This document shows, in pieces, positions 1,401 to 9,319 of a stretch of 64,000 bases of DNA. Positions within the stretch are counted from its first letter, which is position 1, and the number at the start of each line of letters is the position of its first letter. Made by a program: the position numbers and the translations under genes. Below the pieces are notes generated by a model that was not told where the DNA came from, searched no databases, and was given only the letters and a program-made list of their open reading frames with translations. Source of the DNA: Nitrososphaerota archaeon (GTDB taxonomy: Archaea; Thermoproteota; Nitrososphaeria_A; Caldarchaeales; Caldarchaeaceae); the NCBI GenBank assembly GCA_041641305.1, contig JBEPYN010000002.1, positions 32,001-96,000 on the forward strand, read 5' to 3'.

Positions 1401-3653
1401 TTACTCTTGGACATGGATGATGCAGCCCATGTAGTGTTTCGAGAGGCTTCTGATGTGGTAGACGCCCTGCGCACGGAATTTATGCTTCCACTTACCCTCA
1501 GGCTTAATCTCCTCCGAAGTAAAGAGATATTCTGCGGGGCCCATGTATGCCTCGATGACGTGCGGTGTCCTGTCTTTGTTGACGAAGGTGACCGTTGCGC
1601 CTTTTTTCACGGAAACGACGGAGGGCTTCATATAGACATCTTCGATTATCGGCTGACCATCATCACTCCAGCCAAAGGGAGGCTTGTCGCTTCTGTTGAT
1701 GATTATTTTTGCTCGGCGGCCGTCGAGAACAGCTGCAACTAGTGGAAGAGGTAGGAGGAGGAAAGGTAGGTAGAACCATGGCGGCAGCTCCAGCCAATTC
1801 ACCTCACCTCTCACGGTCGTGGTCAACTCTACCGTAGCAGTTGTGGTGGTGTTGCGTGAAACAGTTGTTGTGGCTGCTATGGTTTCTGACCGTGTTGTGG
1901 CAACGGTGGCGTAGACGGTGTTCAAAATAATTGAAGTTGAAATATCGGTGACCGTGGTTTGAACAGTTGCATGCACTGTTTCTGTAAGTGAATAAGTTGA
2001 CGTGGTTAACTGTGTAAATGTGGTGTAGAGGGCTGATGAGAATGTTTCTGTCACATATCTTGTATTGGTTATTGTAGCTGTGGTTGTTTGAGTGAGAGTT
2101 GATGTGATTGCTGAAGTAGTGGTCTGTGTGTAGGTGGCTGTCGTTGTAGAGGTTGACGTTGTTGTAAAGAATAAGGAGCGGGGACAAAAAGCTCCATAAA
2201 AACCATAGATCACCACACCTAAATCCGTGTCAAAAACAGGTGTCCAAATATTTTCATCCCACAAATCATATCTTAAATCCGGCTTGAACGGCAATATACT
2301 TGGGCCCCCCACATCTGTCCACAGTGGAAACGTAAAGTTAAACAGGTTAAGAAAAACGTATTCAAGCCTATAGTACTCCGAGGCTCCGCCAAGGTAGACA
2401 CAGTCGCCAAAAGCGTCAACTCCCAGAACCTGCACACTATAATATGGGCTTTCTTCGCCGCGTATACGGAATCCAAAAGATGCTTCGCCGTTGAATTTGT
2501 TTACGGCAAGCAACAAACCATGAGACGGCCGCTCACTACCTGAACCCATGTAATCATTCGTGGAGAAACCGCCTATGAACAAGTATGTATCCGAAACCGC
2601 CCCTGACACACCATAGGCAAACCGTATCACAATGTGTTCTGGCGGAGTGGTCGAGGGGTCCATGTAAACGTTAAAGGCCGGATAAGATTGAACCCATAGA
2701 CTGTTCATGTATCTGTCAAACTTGTGGACAGCTACAACATCATTGGCCATGAACTTCCGATATGTCTCGATTACGTAGACGTCGTTATTATTCCTGTCCA
2801 CAACTATCTCCAGCCCTGGGAAAAACCCTTCTATAGGAAGCAGAATGGTTGTGTTGGTGGGAGACAGGTTTGTCTTGTTGAGCTCTAGGATGAACACCCT
2901 TGCCCCATTCCAATTTGCACTATTGTACCCGGTTATTCCTCCTACATAGACTCTTTGGTCCCCGAGAGCTATCGACAAGCCTAAATCACTTGCCGGGTCG
3001 TATATTTGATAGAATCCGTCGATTACCGGTTGCAGATATTGGTCAAGCCTAACAACATAAAATCCCAATCTTTCGGCTATAAAAAGCCCAACCAGCAGAT
3101 AAACACCCGTCTCGTCAACAGCCAAATCAATACCCTCACCGGTTAAGATTGTGACAAAAGAAATTTCTTCAAAATCAGTTACATAAAATCTATGAATCCC
3201 GGTTAGATTACAATCGGCTTTTGAAAAAGCCGCGACATACACAGCTATAGCTCCGAGTCTCGAGGCCCAGTAATAACCTGCCACAAAGACATGAGTCTGA
3301 TTCAATTCAACCGATGCAGCTAACCCGAAAGCAAACCCAGTGTCAACAGGGAATTCGACATAGTTGCTGCAGCGATGAGTATGATCAGGGTTCATGATTG
3401 TTAGAGAAGACTGAGGTAGTCTATAATCTATAGATGATGTGGAACCCACCATGTATATCCCGTCCTCGTCGACCTCAATATCATATACCGATGCTAGCCC
3501 CGCGACGCCTCTGTTCTCAATATCAAAGGTCCGAAGCAAACCATATGCGGGGTCTGCTTGAGAAGCTTGCCAAGGCATCAACCACAGTAACGTCAAAAGA
3601 ACAGTGACTATGATTAAGCTTGTGTTTCTTTTCATCATTGAAACTGCCGACAC
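1401..3653 (-). CDS. Surface protein: signal peptide, beta-propeller, Thr-rich stalk, TM helix, C-terminal cupredoxin-like domain
   Basis: Hydrophobic N-terminus, 'VYVGG/IYMVG' blade repeats, Thr-rich run, TM, then 'PSVVSVKKGATVTFVNKD..PH' plastocyanin-like tail. Confidence 0.7.
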   Translation of the reverse strand: MSAVSMMKRNTSLIIVTVLLTLLWLMPWQASQADPAYGLLRTFDIENRGVAGLASVYDIEVDEDGIYMVGSTSSIDYRLPQSSLTIMNPDHTHRCSNYVEFPVDTGFAFGLAASVELNQTHVFVAGYYWASRLGAIAVYVAAFSKADCNLTGIHRFYVTDFEEISFVTILTGEGIDLAVDETGVYLLVGLFIAERLGFYVVRLDQYLQPVIDGFYQIYDPASDLGLSIALGDQRVYVGGITGYNSANWNGARVFILELNKTNLSPTNTTILLPIEGFFPGLEIVVDRNNNDVYVIETYRKFMANDVVAVHKFDRYMNSLWVQSYPAFNVYMDPSTTPPEHIVIRFAYGVSGAVSDTYLFIGGFSTNDYMGSGSERPSHGLLLAVNKFNGEASFGFRIRGEESPYYSVQVLGVDAFGDCVYLGGASEYYRLEYVFLNLFNFTFPLWTDVGGPSILPFKPDLRYDLWDENIWTPVFDTDLGVVIYGFYGAFCPRSLFFTTTSTSTTTATYTQTTTSAITSTLTQTTTATITNTRYVTETFSSALYTTFTQLTTSTYSLTETVHATVQTTVTDISTSIILNTVYATVATTRSETIAATTTVSRNTTTTATVELTTTVRGEVNWLELPPWFYLPFLLLPLPLVAAVLDGRRAKIIINRSDKPPFGWSDDGQPIIEDVYMKPSVVSVKKGATVTFVNKDRTPHVIEAYMGPAEYLFTSEEIKPEGKWKHKFRAQGVYHIRSLSKHYMGCIIHVQE

Positions 3654-3767: not shown

Positions 3768-5879
3768 CTACGGGTAGACTACTTCGTAGATGTATACGTA
3801 TGCGAGTGATTGGTAGGGTGGGCTTGACTGGTATACGAGGCGGAAGTAGTTGAGTTGGCTGGGGTTGTAGAGGTGTCCGGGGCCGAAGGCTGTTTGGGTT
3901 GGTTTGTATGGGATGAGTTGGCCGAGGAGTGTTTGCCAGAACCGCTGAGTGGGCTGGAAGTTCTGGTCAACGTAGTCCGATTCCCGGTAGAAATGTCCGG
4001 TCTGGTTGGCTATCCGCAGCATCCAAATCCACTTCCCCTCGTCGCCGAACCCGAGCAAACGCCCATACGCCTGACCACCCTGCACAACAAACTGATGCGT
4101 CACATAGATAACCACGTGTGTGACGTTGTGGCGGCGGAAAATCTCCATCGCAGTTCTCTCATCGCTCATGAAGGCGTGGGCCACGTCACCTATCTGCGTC
4201 GAGTTGATTGTTCCGTTGTCGATGAGCGTGATTCTCTCACCCAGTATGGTTATCCAGTAGCCGTAGTCCCACCACGACGCCACAACCGCGTCCTTGGGGA
4301 GATTGTCACGCATCCATGCAAGGGCCCTGACCCAGTCGGGGATGGATTGGCGGGCGGGGAAGCTCGATGTAACAATCGTGGCAGGCTGGTAACCCTGGTC
4401 GATAGGCGACAAAGTAACTCTCGAACCAAGCCCTCCATAGACCGACGGCACAATCGAGACAAGAAGCAGGAGAACAAGCAGCACAGGCGTGAATGCGGCG
4501 AGCCCTATGTTCACCTCCTCACCCCTTCTCTTCGAAGCACGTCTCTGTGCAATCAAGTCACCAAGCCGGGTGAAGACAAATGCGTAGCCATGTCCCGCGA
4601 CAAGCGCGACAGCCGGTGACGCGAGGAGGGAGAGGCGGACCATCGATGACGCGAAATACGCCGCGAAGAGGAGAAAGAGGACGATGAAGAGGTCGGGGTC
4701 GCGCCGCGTCTTGATAAGCTGGTAAACGCCAATAGGCACGAGAGCCAGGGCCAGCCCAAAGTCGGAAAACATGATGGACCACGTCGGAACCTGGTTTTCC
4801 GCAACCGATTCAACGATGGGCAAAGCGTCGCGGAGACCCGGGAGCAGAACGGAGAGGAACTTGAGCCCCGGCACACCGAGGAAACCGAGGCCCAGCAAAG
4901 AGAAGAACCCGACAGCCGAGAGAAAGAGCACCGTTAAAATGGTTAAACGCCTTACCTCGGGCTGCTTTATCCGCGAAGCCGCCTCAAACACGGCGAGGAT
5001 GAAGAGGGCGATGAAGCCTGAGAAGATGGTGATTTCGCGGATGTAGCCGGGGCCGAGCTTGGGGACAGACACAGCGATGGACGTGTATACGGCGAAGGCG
5101 AGGGCTGTCGCGACCAGCAGGTTTCGGCGATATCTTCCGATTACGGCGAGGATGACGCTGAACAACGGTATGTACGCTAGCGGAAACTTGTGCGCACCCC
5201 AACTAGCTGCCATGAAGCCGAGAAACAGCCCCGACAACAAGGAGAAAACAACCGTCCCACGCAGACTCCTCTTCTCAGAAATCGCAGCCAAGTAGAAGAT
5301 GTATCCGCCCAGCATCAGAGGCAGGCTGAGGCTCTCGTCATCAAACCATCCCAGATGAGTACGCCCGATATGCGCCGTGCTAATCGCCATGAACAGCGCA
5401 GCGGCCAACCCCGTAGAGGAGCCGCCGACACGTTTACCGAGAAAATATACGGCGACAACAGTCAACACCCCGTAGACAACCGGCAGCGCCGCGGCGAGCT
5501 CGAGAGTGTCCACGGTTACGCCGAAGGATTTGAGGGTGAGGTAGATGAATGCCATCGCGAAGGGGATGCCGGGGAAAGCCGTGCGCCCCATGTCCCGGCC
5601 CCACGGATACCACGACATCGTATCATGCCAGTTGAAGAACTCGGCGAACCCGCCCCAGCCCCGCTCAATCACGAACAAAGCCTCCTTATATTGAACCCAT
5701 GGGTCAAACTCGGAGAGAGCAACACCCCAGCGGAGAGGCAGCACACGGAGAACAAAAGCCGTGCTCAGCAACAGAAGAAGAATACCCAGCTCAGCCAAAC
5801 GATGCCTCCCACCCAGCACACGGTCCACACGCCTCAGCCCAGACAAAACACGCCCAACAGACAAACCCGTTCCAGCCAA
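3768..5879 (-). CDS. aglB: Oligosaccharyltransferase AglB (STT3 family)
   Basis: EFDPW, WYPWGR, FDDE, SVAEN, WWDYG and DNGTIN motifs; many TM helices. Confidence 0.95.
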   Translation of the reverse strand: MAGTGLSVGRVLSGLRRVDRVLGGRHRLAELGILLLLLSTAFVLRVLPLRWGVALSEFDPWVQYKEALFVIERGWGGFAEFFNWHDTMSWYPWGRDMGRTAFPGIPFAMAFIYLTLKSFGVTVDTLELAAALPVVYGVLTVVAVYFLGKRVGGSSTGLAAALFMAISTAHIGRTHLGWFDDESLSLPLMLGGYIFYLAAISEKRSLRGTVVFSLLSGLFLGFMAASWGAHKFPLAYIPLFSVILAVIGRYRRNLLVATALAFAVYTSIAVSVPKLGPGYIREITIFSGFIALFILAVFEAASRIKQPEVRRLTILTVLFLSAVGFFSLLGLGFLGVPGLKFLSVLLPGLRDALPIVESVAENQVPTWSIMFSDFGLALALVPIGVYQLIKTRRDPDLFIVLFLLFAAYFASSMVRLSLLASPAVALVAGHGYAFVFTRLGDLIAQRRASKRRGEEVNIGLAAFTPVLLVLLLLVSIVPSVYGGLGSRVTLSPIDQGYQPATIVTSSFPARQSIPDWVRALAWMRDNLPKDAVVASWWDYGYWITILGERITLIDNGTINSTQIGDVAHAFMSDERTAMEIFRRHNVTHVVIYVTHQFVVQGGQAYGRLLGFGDEGKWIWMLRIANQTGHFYRESDYVDQNFQPTQRFWQTLLGQLIPYKPTQTAFGPGHLYNPSQLNYFRLVYQSSPPYQSLAYVYIYEVVYP

Positions 5880-5996: not shown

Positions 5997-7715
5997 ATGA
6001 TGAGGAGAATTTGTGTAGCTGGTTTGTTGGCTGCCCTGATGTTAACGGCGGTTATGAGCGGGTTAGGTGAGGTTGTCAGCTTCCGCCTCTCCTACGGCGG
6101 CCCCGCAGACGACATCACCACAGACATCTACGTCGACGCCAACGGCATATACACCGTGGGTTACACAACATCTTTCGGCCCCAACACACCCAACGCTTTC
6201 CTCACAATCTTCAACAGCGACAACACCCATCGATGCAGCGTAGCCCTCGACCTCGGAGCCAGCGAAGAAGCCAGAGCCCTGACATTTCACAACAACAAAA
6301 TATACATGCTCGGAAAAACAACAGCAGGGTCGACGCCCCCCAACCACTTCGTCGCCGTCTTCGACACCAGCTGCAGCCTCCAAACCATAAACCTCTACGA
6401 CATAGGGCCCGGCGAAGAAGTAACAGACATAGCCGTCGAGCCGGCCGCTTCCCCATCGTTCTATGTCGTAGGCTATCAGCCGGGTATTGGCGCATTCGTT
6501 GAGAAGCTTGACTCAAGCCTCAACGTGGTGTGGGCCAAGAACTTCAAGGTGCGTGGTGGAAACGATTTGGCGAACGCGGTCGCCTTCGCTGGAGGCCGCG
6601 TCTACATAGCTGGCACATCCGACGACGGAAGCTCCCTCGAGATGTTTGTCACAGTCTTCGACACCAGCGGCAACCACATAGCCACAAGAGAAATAGGCGG
6701 GTCAAACAACGACGAAGCATATGACGTCATCGTCTCTGCGGGAAACATCTACCTCGCCGGAAAAACATTCATCGCGGGAAGACAGGATGAAGCTATCCTG
6801 GTGCGTCTGGACTCTGGCTTGGCGCTACAGTGGATAAGAGCCTTTGGAACATCCACAGGCGACGAGGTCGCGTATGGCTTAACAGCCGTGGGCGGAACCC
6901 TCTACATAGCCGGCTACACCACCGGATATGGAACACGGGACGTGTTGCTCGCAGCCTACGCCGCCGACGGAACATTCTCACACTCATTCTTCATCACCGG
7001 CGGCCCCTCGGGCGACGACTGGGCTCATTCGGCGGCCTCGCTCGGAGCATGTGTCTACCTCGCGGGCCAACACGTCAACTTACCGCTCTTCTACGTCATA
7101 AACGACCTACAAAACGCACAATCCTCCTCTGTTTCGCTGACGGTTGAAACATTGACACCGACCATGACCAATGTCACCCCATCAACATCACCGCCTTCAC
7201 CCGGCGTCGCAACCTACACACCTTCGATAAACACCGCAGCCAACATCAACTCCTTTTACTCAAGGTTCTGCCCCGACAACCTTGTCTCAACAAGCACGAC
7301 CACAGTGACCTCGACAGTTGGCACAACCACCACGGCCACGGCTACAGCGACAACCACGACAACCGCCTACGCAATAGCCACGACAACAATCACGCAGACA
7401 AGCTCCGTCATCCTCGTCTCAACAGCAACCAGCACCACAACAATCCCAGTCACAACAACTCAGACACAAACACAGACGACGACAAACACCCAAACAGTGA
7501 CAACCACAGCCACCACAACCACAACCTCAACAGCACAAACCACACAGACACAGTCAACAACACTAACCCTGACACAGATAACAACCATCGCCTTCGCCGA
7601 ACCCGTCTCAACCTACATACTCCCCATGCTCCTCATACTCATAGCAGTCCTCGTGGGAACAGCGATAATCGTCGGCAGAAGAAGACAACCCCAGCCACAA
7701 CCACCCACCTTCTAA
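5997..7715 (+). CDS. Surface protein: beta-propeller (SBBP-like repeats), Thr-rich stalk, C-terminal TM anchor
   Basis: Repeated 'GG..DD.A..' and 'IYLAG.T' blades, poly-Thr region, TM followed by RRR. Confidence 0.75.
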   Translation: MMRRICVAGLLAALMLTAVMSGLGEVVSFRLSYGGPADDITTDIYVDANGIYTVGYTTSFGPNTPNAFLTIFNSDNTHRCSVALDLGASEEARALTFHNNKIYMLGKTTAGSTPPNHFVAVFDTSCSLQTINLYDIGPGEEVTDIAVEPAASPSFYVVGYQPGIGAFVEKLDSSLNVVWAKNFKVRGGNDLANAVAFAGGRVYIAGTSDDGSSLEMFVTVFDTSGNHIATREIGGSNNDEAYDVIVSAGNIYLAGKTFIAGRQDEAILVRLDSGLALQWIRAFGTSTGDEVAYGLTAVGGTLYIAGYTTGYGTRDVLLAAYAADGTFSHSFFITGGPSGDDWAHSAASLGACVYLAGQHVNLPLFYVINDLQNAQSSSVSLTVETLTPTMTNVTPSTSPPSPGVATYTPSINTAANINSFYSRFCPDNLVSTSTTTVTSTVGTTTTATATATTTTTAYAIATTTITQTSSVILVSTATSTTTIPVTTTQTQTQTTTNTQTVTTTATTTTTSTAQTTQTQSTTLTLTQITTIAFAEPVSTYILPMLLILIAVLVGTAIIVGRRRQPQPQPPTF

Positions 7716-7901
7716 ACTTTCCCAACCATTTTGCTATTTTTTCTGATAGTGACAACGATAAACAACGCACTACTCTCCAACAAAAAGGAAATTCTCAAAC
7801 TGCGATATAGCCGAGGTAAATGGCGGAGAAAGATGTAGTGACTTGGTCCGCGGGGAGGAAAATTAGCCTTTTTAAATGGCTGATGAGGGAAGGGTGTCGG
7901 G

Positions 7902-8294
7902 ATGGCTGAGAGAGTTAGGCGGCTTATCGACGCTGTGTATGAGCTGGTTCAGAGGCCTGGGTTTCAGGAGCTGTTGTCATGGCTTGCCGTGGTTGTTTCG
8001 AGTATTGTTTTGGCGGGTGTTGTTTACAATGTTGCTTCGCGGGTTGTGATTGGTGTGGCGTTTATCGGCGACTCTGTCAGGGTGTTTTACCCCGATACAC
8101 GGGTTCAGACGGTTGCGGAGATGATGGTTGTCGCAACCTTCTACATCCTCGGCTTCGTCGGCCTCCTTCTGTATGGTGTGGCTTTCAGCAAACGGTTCAG
8201 CCCCAGAGCCTCCCGCTACATGCTGCTCTTCAGCACCCTGCTCATCACGCTCGCCGCCCTCGGGCTAATCGGCGGATACCTCTCAAAAACGTAG
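7902..8294 (+). CDS. OSTC/DC2 (OST3/OST6 C-terminal-like) oligosaccharyltransferase accessory subunit homolog
   Basis: Three TM helices; AGVVYNV, QTVAE, FYILGFVGL, RYMLLF and terminal K align by eye with OSTC/DC2 motifs. Confidence 0.65.
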   Translation: MAERVRRLIDAVYELVQRPGFQELLSWLAVVVSSIVLAGVVYNVASRVVIGVAFIGDSVRVFYPDTRVQTVAEMMVVATFYILGFVGLLLYGVAFSKRFSPRASRYMLLFSTLLITLAALGLIGGYLSKT

Positions 8295-8927
8295 AAACTC
8301 CACACCCTTCTCCACTATCTTAAAATAGATTTTCTGGGCAACGGGCTTCTCCTGCATCACCACCGAAGCGTCGCGTCCTCTCTGAACCTTGGCAACCACG
8401 TCAGACCAATAGGTGACTATGCGGGCTGCGACAGGCTCCTGCGCATCGATCGCTGGAATAGAGTGGACAAGACCCACCAAGACGACGGAGATTTTCCTAA
8501 CGATTGCGAGGTTTTTCAGTAAAGCGGCTTGTAGCGAGAGGGCCCTGTATATAGGTAGGTCTGTGGATGGTTTTCCGCTGAGCTCGAGCTTGTGTAGGTA
8601 GGTGAAGTCGTCGCAGACTATTAGCGACGCGTCCGAGGGCGGGAAATCGTGGACGTTGAGCAGCGTCTCGAGCTGTTCATGGAATGTTCGGGGCTGGCTG
8701 ATGTAGAGCTGGTCAAGCCTCTCAACTGGGAAAATCTGTCTAAGACGAGCAGGGTGCAGCCGTGCTCCACAATCTATCCAAACAACTTTTCCACCTCTCT
8801 CAGCTATCTTCGCCGCGGCTGAGAGAAGCAACGCTGTCTTACCCGACTTCTCCTCACCATACAGCAGATAAGACGATGTGGACTTGAAGTCTGCTGTGAA
8901 AAAATCTCTGATGCCTGCCGTCTTCAC
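8283..8927 (-). CDS. RadB-like RecA-superfamily ATPase
   Basis: Walker A GEEKSGKT, VVWID, LIVCDD, 'YWSDVV'. Confidence 0.75.
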   Translation of the reverse strand: MKTAGIRDFFTADFKSTSSYLLYGEEKSGKTALLLSAAAKIAERGGKVVWIDCGARLHPARLRQIFPVERLDQLYISQPRTFHEQLETLLNVHDFPPSDASLIVCDDFTYLHKLELSGKPSTDLPIYRALSLQAALLKNLAIVRKISVVLVGLVHSIPAIDAQEPVAARIVTYWSDVVAKVQRGRDASVVMQEKPVAQKIYFKIVEKGVEFLRF

Positions 8928-9007
8928 TGTCTCGGAAAATGGTGAGACGGGTTATAGGCTTAACTTTTTATGATGCTGGATTGTGTGGACGGCGGCTCAG
9001 GGGGCTG

Positions 9008-9319
9008 ATGATGCGGCGGATTATCCGATTCAAGCCCGAGTATCTTGACCTTATTCTCAAGGGCTTGAAGACGTCAACCATCAGGCCCGGCGACGGCGGC
9101 GACTACGCCAAGGAGCTGATTCTGACAGATGGAAAACGCAGAATAGCAGCGGAGCTGCTCGCCGTAGAGGTCATGACCCTCCGCGAAGCCGTAAACACAC
9201 GCTATCAACTTGAGGGATACAGCTCACCCGAAGAACTCTACCAAAGCATCAAAAAAATCTACAACAACATCGGACCCGACGACCCCGTAACCATCATCCA
9301 CTTCAACCCAAAAACATAA
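9008..9319 (+). CDS. ASCH domain protein
   Basis: 'F...YLDLILKG.KTSTIR' and 'EGY.S.EEL...KKIY' motifs; start moved to ATG 9008. Confidence 0.85.
   Translation: MMRRIIRFKPEYLDLILKGLKTSTIRPGDGGDYAKELILTDGKRRIAAELLAVEVMTLREAVNTRYQLEGYSSPEELYQSIKKIYNNIGPDDPVTIIHFNPKT

Follow-up and report, generated by a model that had tools for sequence, protein, structure and literature searches.

Eukaryotic oligosaccharyltransferase (OST) surrounds its catalytic STT3 subunit with accessory membrane proteins, and two related types are relevant here. Human/metazoan DC2/OSTC is the STT3A-specific subunit of OST-A; DC2 binds STT3A and MagT1 binds STT3B (PMC7226087). Three transmembrane helices (TMHs) of Ost3 contact TMH10/11/13 of Stt3, Ost3 TMH2 forms with Stt3 TMH6/8/11 the membrane pocket proposed for LLO docking, and Ost3 TMH3-4 pack against Sec61 subunits in a docked yeast model (PMC7226087). 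For DC2, the Ncyt-Clum topology was shown experimentally, and K142 together with the FMRMK motif is required for assembly with STT3A, the K142A exchange reducing assembly two- to three-fold (PMC5674889). DC2 and KCP2 mediate the contact with Sec61, and a functional STT3A-Sec61 interaction depends on the lumenal loop of DC2 as well as on its cytoplasmic segment at the N terminus (PMC5674889).

The archaeal enzyme is listed as single-subunit in reviews (PMC7226087, PMC8993221), and Lombard (2016) reported no prokaryotic homologues of the noncatalytic OST subunits (PMC4973528). Most discussion of OST accessory subunits treats them as "eukaryotic signature proteins" of Asgard archaea (PMC10307638). 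Homologues of Ost1 and Ost3 were reported in that group, and OST3/6 was counted there among the eukaryotic signature proteins (Zaremba-Niedzwiedzka 2017, cited in PMC10307638 and PMC8993221). Carilo et al. (PMC11417166) studied the OST3/6 protein of MK-D1 and in one sentence place OST1 and OST3/6 in eukaryotes, TACK, and Asgard archaea. In a literature mostly without subscription journals, we found no paper on a three-helix DC2-like architecture, its pairing with aglB, or its TACK phyletic pattern.

Archaeal OST3/6 homologues are already known, and the OSTC-like protein described here, from a hot-spring archaeon (Caldarchaeum), adds another member. It is encoded in the window, by which we mean the whole stretch of 64,000 nucleotides that was analyzed. 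The protein resembles OSTC/DC2 (PDB 6S7O H, 8PN9 H, 8B6L J, 9N9J J, and 6FTG 3) in its size (130 versus 149 aa), in its three TM helices, in having no thioredoxin domain, in its N-in/C-out topology (predicted in the archaeal protein), and in the succession of a GGxxY motif at the end of TM1, a QxxxE motif at the start of TM2, a TM2 glycine, and a C-terminal lysine. It differs from OSTC/DC2 in that identity is only 12-14% and in that the archaeal outer loop is shorter and contains a beta-hairpin. The setting differs as well: OSTC belongs to an eight-subunit ER complex, whereas in the archaeon the putative partner would be AglB alone, in the cell membrane, and KCP2, Ost4, and Ost1 were not detected in the archaeal genome. 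With Ost3/Ost6 and MagT1/TUSC3 (PF04756) the protein shares three helices, equivalent to TMH2-4 (residues 215-325 in MagT1, 214-325 in Ost6), and the same conserved Q/E and Lys positions, but it is without their N-terminal signal, first TM helix, and luminal CxxC thioredoxin domain. Like the Asgard OST3/6 homologues, compared via published descriptions, it belongs to the same Pfam/InterPro family in archaea; unlike them, it comes from a host of the Aigarchaeota/Caldarchaeales (TACK) and stands without the Ost1, Ost2, Ost4, Ost5, Swp1, and Wbp1 described in Asgard archaea (PMC10307638).

The OSTC-like gene and its presumed partner

The features on which the argument is built are the following.

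7869..7877, + strand: TATA-like box TTTTTAAAT, centered about 29 nt before the ATG of the OSTC-like gene; in the genus, a conserved TTTWAAA located 25-29 nt before the ATG
7902..8294, + strand: coding sequence of the OSTC/DC2-like, OST3/6-family protein with three TM helices (reading frame, family profile, fold, purifying selection)
3768..5879, - strand: aglB, an STT3-type oligosaccharyltransferase of 703 aa and the presumed partner (PF02516, E 2.5e-37; STT3/AglB core domains)

The OSTC-like reading frame opens with ATG and encodes 130 aa and a stop, with three predicted TM helices. It is a real gene: compared with the 93%-identical orthologue in a congeneric complete genome, it shows 37 synonymous and 10 nonsynonymous codon differences, a pattern of purifying selection. 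The TTTWAAA element is the sole conserved upstream block in eight congeneric species, the remaining upstream sequence being unalignable; the box suggests that the gene has its own promoter and that its mRNA may be leaderless or near-leaderless. The nearest proteins in the databases come from Candidatus Caldarchaeum metagenome-assembled genomes and are annotated "hypothetical protein," which makes the organism an aigarchaeote (Caldarchaeales, Thermoproteota). A reading of this DNA made from the letters and translated reading frames alone (the sequence-only reading) had proposed a 130-aa, 3-TM protein at 7902-8294. The reading frame is there on the + strand, three helices appear in the AlphaFold model, and all the strings quoted from it (LAGVVYNV, VQTVAEM, FYILGFVGL, and RYMLLF) are found. 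The C-terminal lysine that had been noted is present as Lys129, although it is the penultimate residue, in SKT, and not the final one.

In the translation of aglB, WWDYG is followed after a few residues by DNGTINST, which we take to be a eukaryote-like double N-glycosylation sequon. According to PMC8993221, which cites Shrimal and Gilmore on this point, a double sequon near the substrate-binding site typically marks eukaryotic Stt3 as well as the AglB of TACK and Asgard archaea. This aglB is the sole STT3 gene in the genome, which is 99.3% complete, and there is one OSTC-like gene too. In the same genome, ribophorin I (Ost1), OST48, and DAD1 (Ost2) gave no match at E<=1 (PF04597, PF03345, and PF02109), KCP2 (PF09775) gave no match, and Ost4 and Ost5 (PF10215, PF05251) gave noise-level scores only, like the bacterial controls; very diverged or tiny homologues could escape these searches. 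The "multi-subunit" OST that had been proposed for this lineage would therefore comprise at most two recognizable subunits, with Ost1, Ost2, Ost4, Ost5, OST48, and KCP2 not detected. We also considered a split Ost3/6 with a separately encoded thioredoxin domain and rejected it. The only candidate, a 140-aa ORF matched by the thioredoxin part of PF04756 (positions 11-104; 27.8 bits, slightly above the gathering score), lies on another contig (G000:C1:102570-102812, + strand), and it is probably a generic thioredoxin, since 12 of the 14 control genomes, E. coli among them, are positive in the same search.

Sequence homology to OSTC, MagT1, and Ost3/Ost6

Taken alone, the OSTC-like protein matches PF04756 (OST3_OST6) with E 0.0021 and 17.9 bits, below the gathering score of 27; the match joins residues 24-117 to profile positions 183-276, which is the membrane part. 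A phmmer search of the single sequence against the PDB returned no OST subunit; all that appeared was noise from ion channels and RibU at E>0.3. In a representative library of 1.8 billion proteins the single sequence found 17 matches, among which P0015 (1604 aa) and P0016 (914 aa) were set aside as spurious: both are repetitive and eukaryotic-looking with many matched stretches, and one of the two consists of tandem copies of a short unit. Relatives were gathered from this library and from whole genomes of the phylum, and 53 of them form alignment A3. Word-indexed protein searches with A3 and with the smaller A2 added few sequences, all annotated "hypothetical protein."

At the level of the family the relationship is clear. 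Individually, 38 of the 53 members match PF04756 at E<=0.01 (best 1.8e-11), and 11 of 16 matched it in a smaller family set, so that the OST3_OST6 search proposed in the sequence-only reading remained sub-threshold for the single sequence but succeeded for the family. Searched against all PDB sequences, the A3 profile found human OSTC/DC2 (E 2.1e-11, 46.9 bits, residues 30-143 of 149), dog OSTC (E 2.9e-10), and human MagT1 (E 1.1e-9, 41.3 bits, residues 215-325 of 335); nothing beyond OSTC and MagT1 was significant, the next match being unrelated at E 0.018. The A2 profile placed MagT1 first and OSTC second. In a language-model atlas the protein falls among archaeal clusters in which 21-31% of the members carry PF04756. 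These results support the conclusion that it is a true distant homologue of OSTC/DC2 and Ost3/6. The original identification thus stands, on significant profile matches to OSTC and MagT1 as well as on the top-ranked folds given below, and the OSTC motifs cited with it (GGIIYDVI, QYIMEG, FTMGGLG, and RFLLLF) occur in the human OSTC chain and align in HMMER with the segments named for them.

Predicted fold, topology, and conserved residues

An AlphaFold2 model computed on A3 (pLDDT 91.5, pTM 0.73) consists of an N-terminal amphipathic helix at residues 2-17 and TM helices at 19-46, 71-94, and 101-129, and DSSP assigns a beta-hairpin to its first loop (strands 51-55 and 58-62). The parts of the protein can be listed as follows.

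7974..8036, + strand: TM1 (residues 25-45), ending in G39 of AGVVY (models, alignment to OSTC GGIIYD)
8037..8117, + strand: extracellular loop (residues 46-72) with the beta-hairpin, P64, and Q69 (DSSP, conservation, few K/R)
8118..8186, + strand: TM2 (residues 73-95), opening with E73 of QxxxE and containing G87 (conservation, alignment)
8217..8291, + strand: TM3 (residues 106-127), followed by a short tail on the outside that carries K129 (K129 conservation)

Among 350,542 PDB chains, Foldseek ranked four OSTC chains and MagT1 at positions 1-5 with probability 1.00 and TM-scores of 0.55-0.72; past rank 5 the probability was <=0.18, with yeast Ost3 and Ost6 at ranks 11, 14, and 23. The E-values were all >0.01. 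An earlier, weaker model (pLDDT 82.4) gave the identical Foldseek order, and on that model VIA-align returned Z 8.0 for MagT1, 7.9 for OSTC, and 7.6 for Ost6, each over 99-104 residues, while the remaining top rows align a hairpin of about 60 residues only; a Z of about 8 is in the noise range for helical models. The modest absolute E-values and Z-scores are to be expected of a small, helical protein, and the fold homology draws its weight from the agreement of three methods (sequence, Foldseek, and a Foldseek-independent aligner) on identical top proteins.

The AGVVY of the protein is GGxxY in most family members and in OSTC. In the 53 sequences G39 is conserved in 100%, G87 in 98%, Q69 and E73 each in 96%, K129 in 81%, and P64 in 79%. 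G39, Q69/E73, G87, and K129 align in HMMER to GGIIY, QYIMEG, the TM2 Gly, and K142 of OSTC, and the MagT1 counterparts are QFVAET at QxxxE and K324 at K129. Judged from the models, TM1 is the equivalent of Ost3 TMH2. Positively charged residues are unevenly distributed: over the 53 sequences the mean number of K+R falls from 5.9 in the N-terminal segment of about 25 residues to 1.6 in loop 1 (27 residues), rises to 2.8 in loop 2 (10 residues), and ends at 1.2 in the tail. This distribution leads us to predict an N-in/C-out topology, with a cytoplasmic N terminus and the C terminus outside. TM1 follows a segment of only about 24 residues, the protein contains no Cys, and its sequence and Pfam coverage contain neither a thioredoxin domain with CxxC nor the fourth (first) TM helix. 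An oxidoreductase function is therefore impossible. The protein is a three-helix membrane module only, corresponding to TMH2-4 of Ost3 or to the whole of DC2/OSTC.

Genomic context

In the window aglB and the OSTC-like gene are divergent and 2,023 bp apart, in agreement with the distance of about 2 kb first read from the sequence. Two genes for Thr-rich, C-terminally anchored surface proteins flank aglB, at 5997-7715 (+ strand) and 1401-3653 (- strand). The one at 5997..7715 separates aglB from the OSTC-like gene, and the spacing of about 2 kb is found only in the genus of the window; the gap is a genus-specific insertion of this surface-protein gene.

Looking for the same pairing in relatives had been suggested as a check, and the linkage proved to be conserved in Caldarchaeales, in 13 of 40 loci outside the order, and in 48 of 80 Bathyarchaeia loci. 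Where Caldarchaeales carry aglB and the OSTC-like gene on one contig (n=26), the two are divergent and <5 kb apart in 24 cases, with a spacing of 250-520 bp in 16, the distance found in Caldarchaeales genera other than that of the window; two genomes of the order have them 32 and 65 kb apart. A single-contig genome of the same genus as the window has aglB about 32 kb from a 93%-identical OSTC-like gene (G009:C1:629385-662843), which suggests a large insertion or rearrangement. The loci outside Caldarchaeales come from 40 genomes and were scored for aglB within 6 kb; in 5 of them, including Thermofilum, the genes are directly adjacent and divergent. The Bathyarchaeia loci were recovered with a four-sequence sub-alignment of the family, and there aglB lies upstream and divergent at 2.6-4.5 kb, with topA between.

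Clustering of the neighbors, which included loci L013-L052 from 40 Thermoproteota genomes, yielded an old conserved block in the order aglB< (topA>) OSTC-like> carS< radA-paralogue< 219-aa ORF> clp1-like kinase> XPD / UbiD. Across 41 loci the OSTC-like gene has the RadA paralogue as a neighbor in 32, the CDP-archaeol synthase gene (carS) in 25, and AglB in 14, and in 25 of the 41 carS is convergent at 7-40 bp. None of secY, secE, and secG is found in this conserved neighborhood. A span of about 12 kb in a genome of 1.6 Mb would include aglB with a probability of <1% per genome, and we infer that the linkage is far above chance. The block also keeps functionally unrelated housekeeping neighbors, so that synteny alone is no proof of co-function with AglB, and part of the linkage may be inherited gene order, not co-function.

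Distribution among archaea

The A2 profile detected the OSTC-like family in half of the Thermoproteota genomes sampled (150 of 300; 74 of 123 genera), and it is present in 37 of 40 Caldarchaeales genomes. Other carriers are Thermofilaceae (7/8; Thermofilum adornatum, Infirmifilum uzonense), Bathyarchaeia, and Nezhaarchaeales, taxonomic families having been assigned by exact EF-1alpha protein look-up. The A2 profile found no member in Nitrosopumilaceae (0/43 genomes; represented by Nitrosotenuis cloacae), Thermoproteaceae (0/20; Pyrobaculum arsenaticum), Desulfurococcaceae (0/13), Sulfolobaceae (0/10; Metallosphaera cuprina), or Pyrodictiaceae (0/5; Pyrodictium occultum), and the broader A3 profile, applied at E<=1 to one representative genome per noncarrier family, returned noise only. 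Weak matches of the window protein (E 0.001-0.006) to ORFs of about 712 aa in one Caldarchaeales genus (G018:C6:25438-25746, G021:C6:31319-31627, and G024:C11:17298-17606) were not recovered by the profile and were dismissed as chance.

The expectation that such homologues are known mainly from Asgard and a few TACK lineages was right about their presence in archaea but not about "few," given half of the Thermoproteota genomes sampled. Whole families have a working AglB without an OSTC-like gene, which means that the gene is not generally required. We infer that its absence from the crenarchaeal and thaumarchaeal model lineages may explain the single-subunit view of archaeal OST.

A DC2-like gene in half of the sampled Thermoproteota would push the origin of at least one accessory subunit below the Asgard-eukaryote node, and would point to the three-helix form as the ancestral one. 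As the carriers Thermofilum adornatum and Infirmifilum uzonense, in which the gene neighbors aglB, are cultured and have complete genomes, the question of a multi-subunit archaeal OST becomes testable.

Proposed role and alternatives

We think that the OSTC-like protein is, on balance, probably a noncatalytic partner of AglB, docked on it as Ost3, MagT1, and DC2 are on STT3 and bordering the site of donor entry. Homology, fold, topology, conserved positions, and linkage to aglB all support this reading and make a physical, still putative, partnership with AglB likely. Because the three helices correspond to TMH2-4 of Ost3, they would be expected to dock where TM10, TM11, and TM13 of AglB make up the equivalent face. 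The conserved C-terminal K129 could partly hold the protein there, and TM1 with its GGxxY motif, together with the QxxxE start of TM2, may help to line the entry groove for the dolichol-linked oligosaccharide. Such a subunit would stabilize AglB or tune its efficiency and would not be essential for catalysis. A point against the partnership is that Ost4, which in yeast bridges Stt3 and Ost3, was not detected in this genome.

It is also possible, though doubtful, that the main job of the AglB-bound protein is that of DC2, namely, to dock AglB on SecYEG via the basic N-terminal helix, the outer loop, and TM2-3. This is a stronger version of the partnership with AglB and does not contradict it. 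In architecture and topology the protein follows DC2 and not Ost3/6, with three TM helices and no thioredoxin domain, and OSTC is the best match of both the profile and Foldseek. The N-terminal segment is strongly basic throughout the family (5.9 K+R on average over about 25 residues), and in DC2 it is this segment and the lumenal loop on which the STT3A-Sec61 interaction depends (PMC5674889). In the docked yeast model Ost3 TMH3-4 pack on Sec61 (PMC7226087). However, no secY, secE, or secG is linked to the locus, and neither KCP2, the co-factor of DC2, nor Ost1, the ribosome-binding subunit, is detectable in the genome. Moreover, the scores of OSTC and MagT1 are near-equal (46.9 versus 41.3 bits), so that sequence does not tie the family to DC2 in particular. 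Coupling to the translocon by this protein is speculative.

It is conceivable, though we would not expect it, that TACK archaea such as Caldarchaeum have a two-subunit OST whose DC2-like subunit both shapes the LLO entry site of AglB and docks AglB onto SecYEG. If this were true, the three-helix form would be the ancestor of eukaryotic DC2 and Ost3/6, and the coupling of OST to the translocon would predate Asgard archaea and eukaryotes. Crenarchaeal model organisms, Sulfolobus and Pyrobaculum among them, would then have lost it secondarily, which would explain why the archaeal enzyme is taught as single-subunit.

Mg2+ transport has been ascribed to MagT1 and TUSC3, and the Pfam label of PF04756 is "transporter family." The OSTC-like protein could likewise be an OST3/6 homologue that works apart from AglB, as a small transporter-like protein or in lipid metabolism with the CDP-archaeol synthase, and its gene is indeed oftener beside carS (25/41) and the RadA paralogue (32/41) than beside aglB (14/41). 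We consider this unlikely, since all structurally characterized relatives occupy the same STT3 site (PDB matches; PMC7226087), the C-terminal Lys linked to assembly with STT3A is among the residues conserved from archaea to humans (PMC5674889), and the head-to-head pairing with aglB recurs across several deep lineages. In addition, three helices without a polar pore-lining pattern would make a poor transporter.

That an unrelated small hydrophobic protein resembles OSTC by chance is extremely improbable: the single sequence reaches just 17.9 bits against a Pfam gathering score of 27 and finds no OST subunit in the PDB, all Foldseek E-values are >0.01, and with helical models Z values near 8 can be noise, but the family profile gives E-values of 2e-11, 3e-10, and 1e-9 followed by a gap of seven orders of magnitude, the sequence search, Foldseek, and the independent aligner share their first-ranked proteins, and the motifs are collinear, so that the family-profile result excludes chance similarity for practical purposes.

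Neighboring genes

Two genes near the OSTC-like gene in the window deserve mention in their own right. The RadA-paralogue/KaiC-like ATPase (8283-8927, - strand) is convergent with the OSTC-like gene and overlaps its 3' end by 12 nt. It scores 90 bits against the RadB model TIGR02237, below the cut-off of 172. Its pairing with the OSTC-like family is the most conserved neighbor relation of that family in Thermoproteota (32/41), and no functional reason for it is apparent. Directly downstream of the RadA paralogue, at 8939-9319 (+ strand), lies a gene for an ASCH-domain protein (PF04266, E 1.9e-11).
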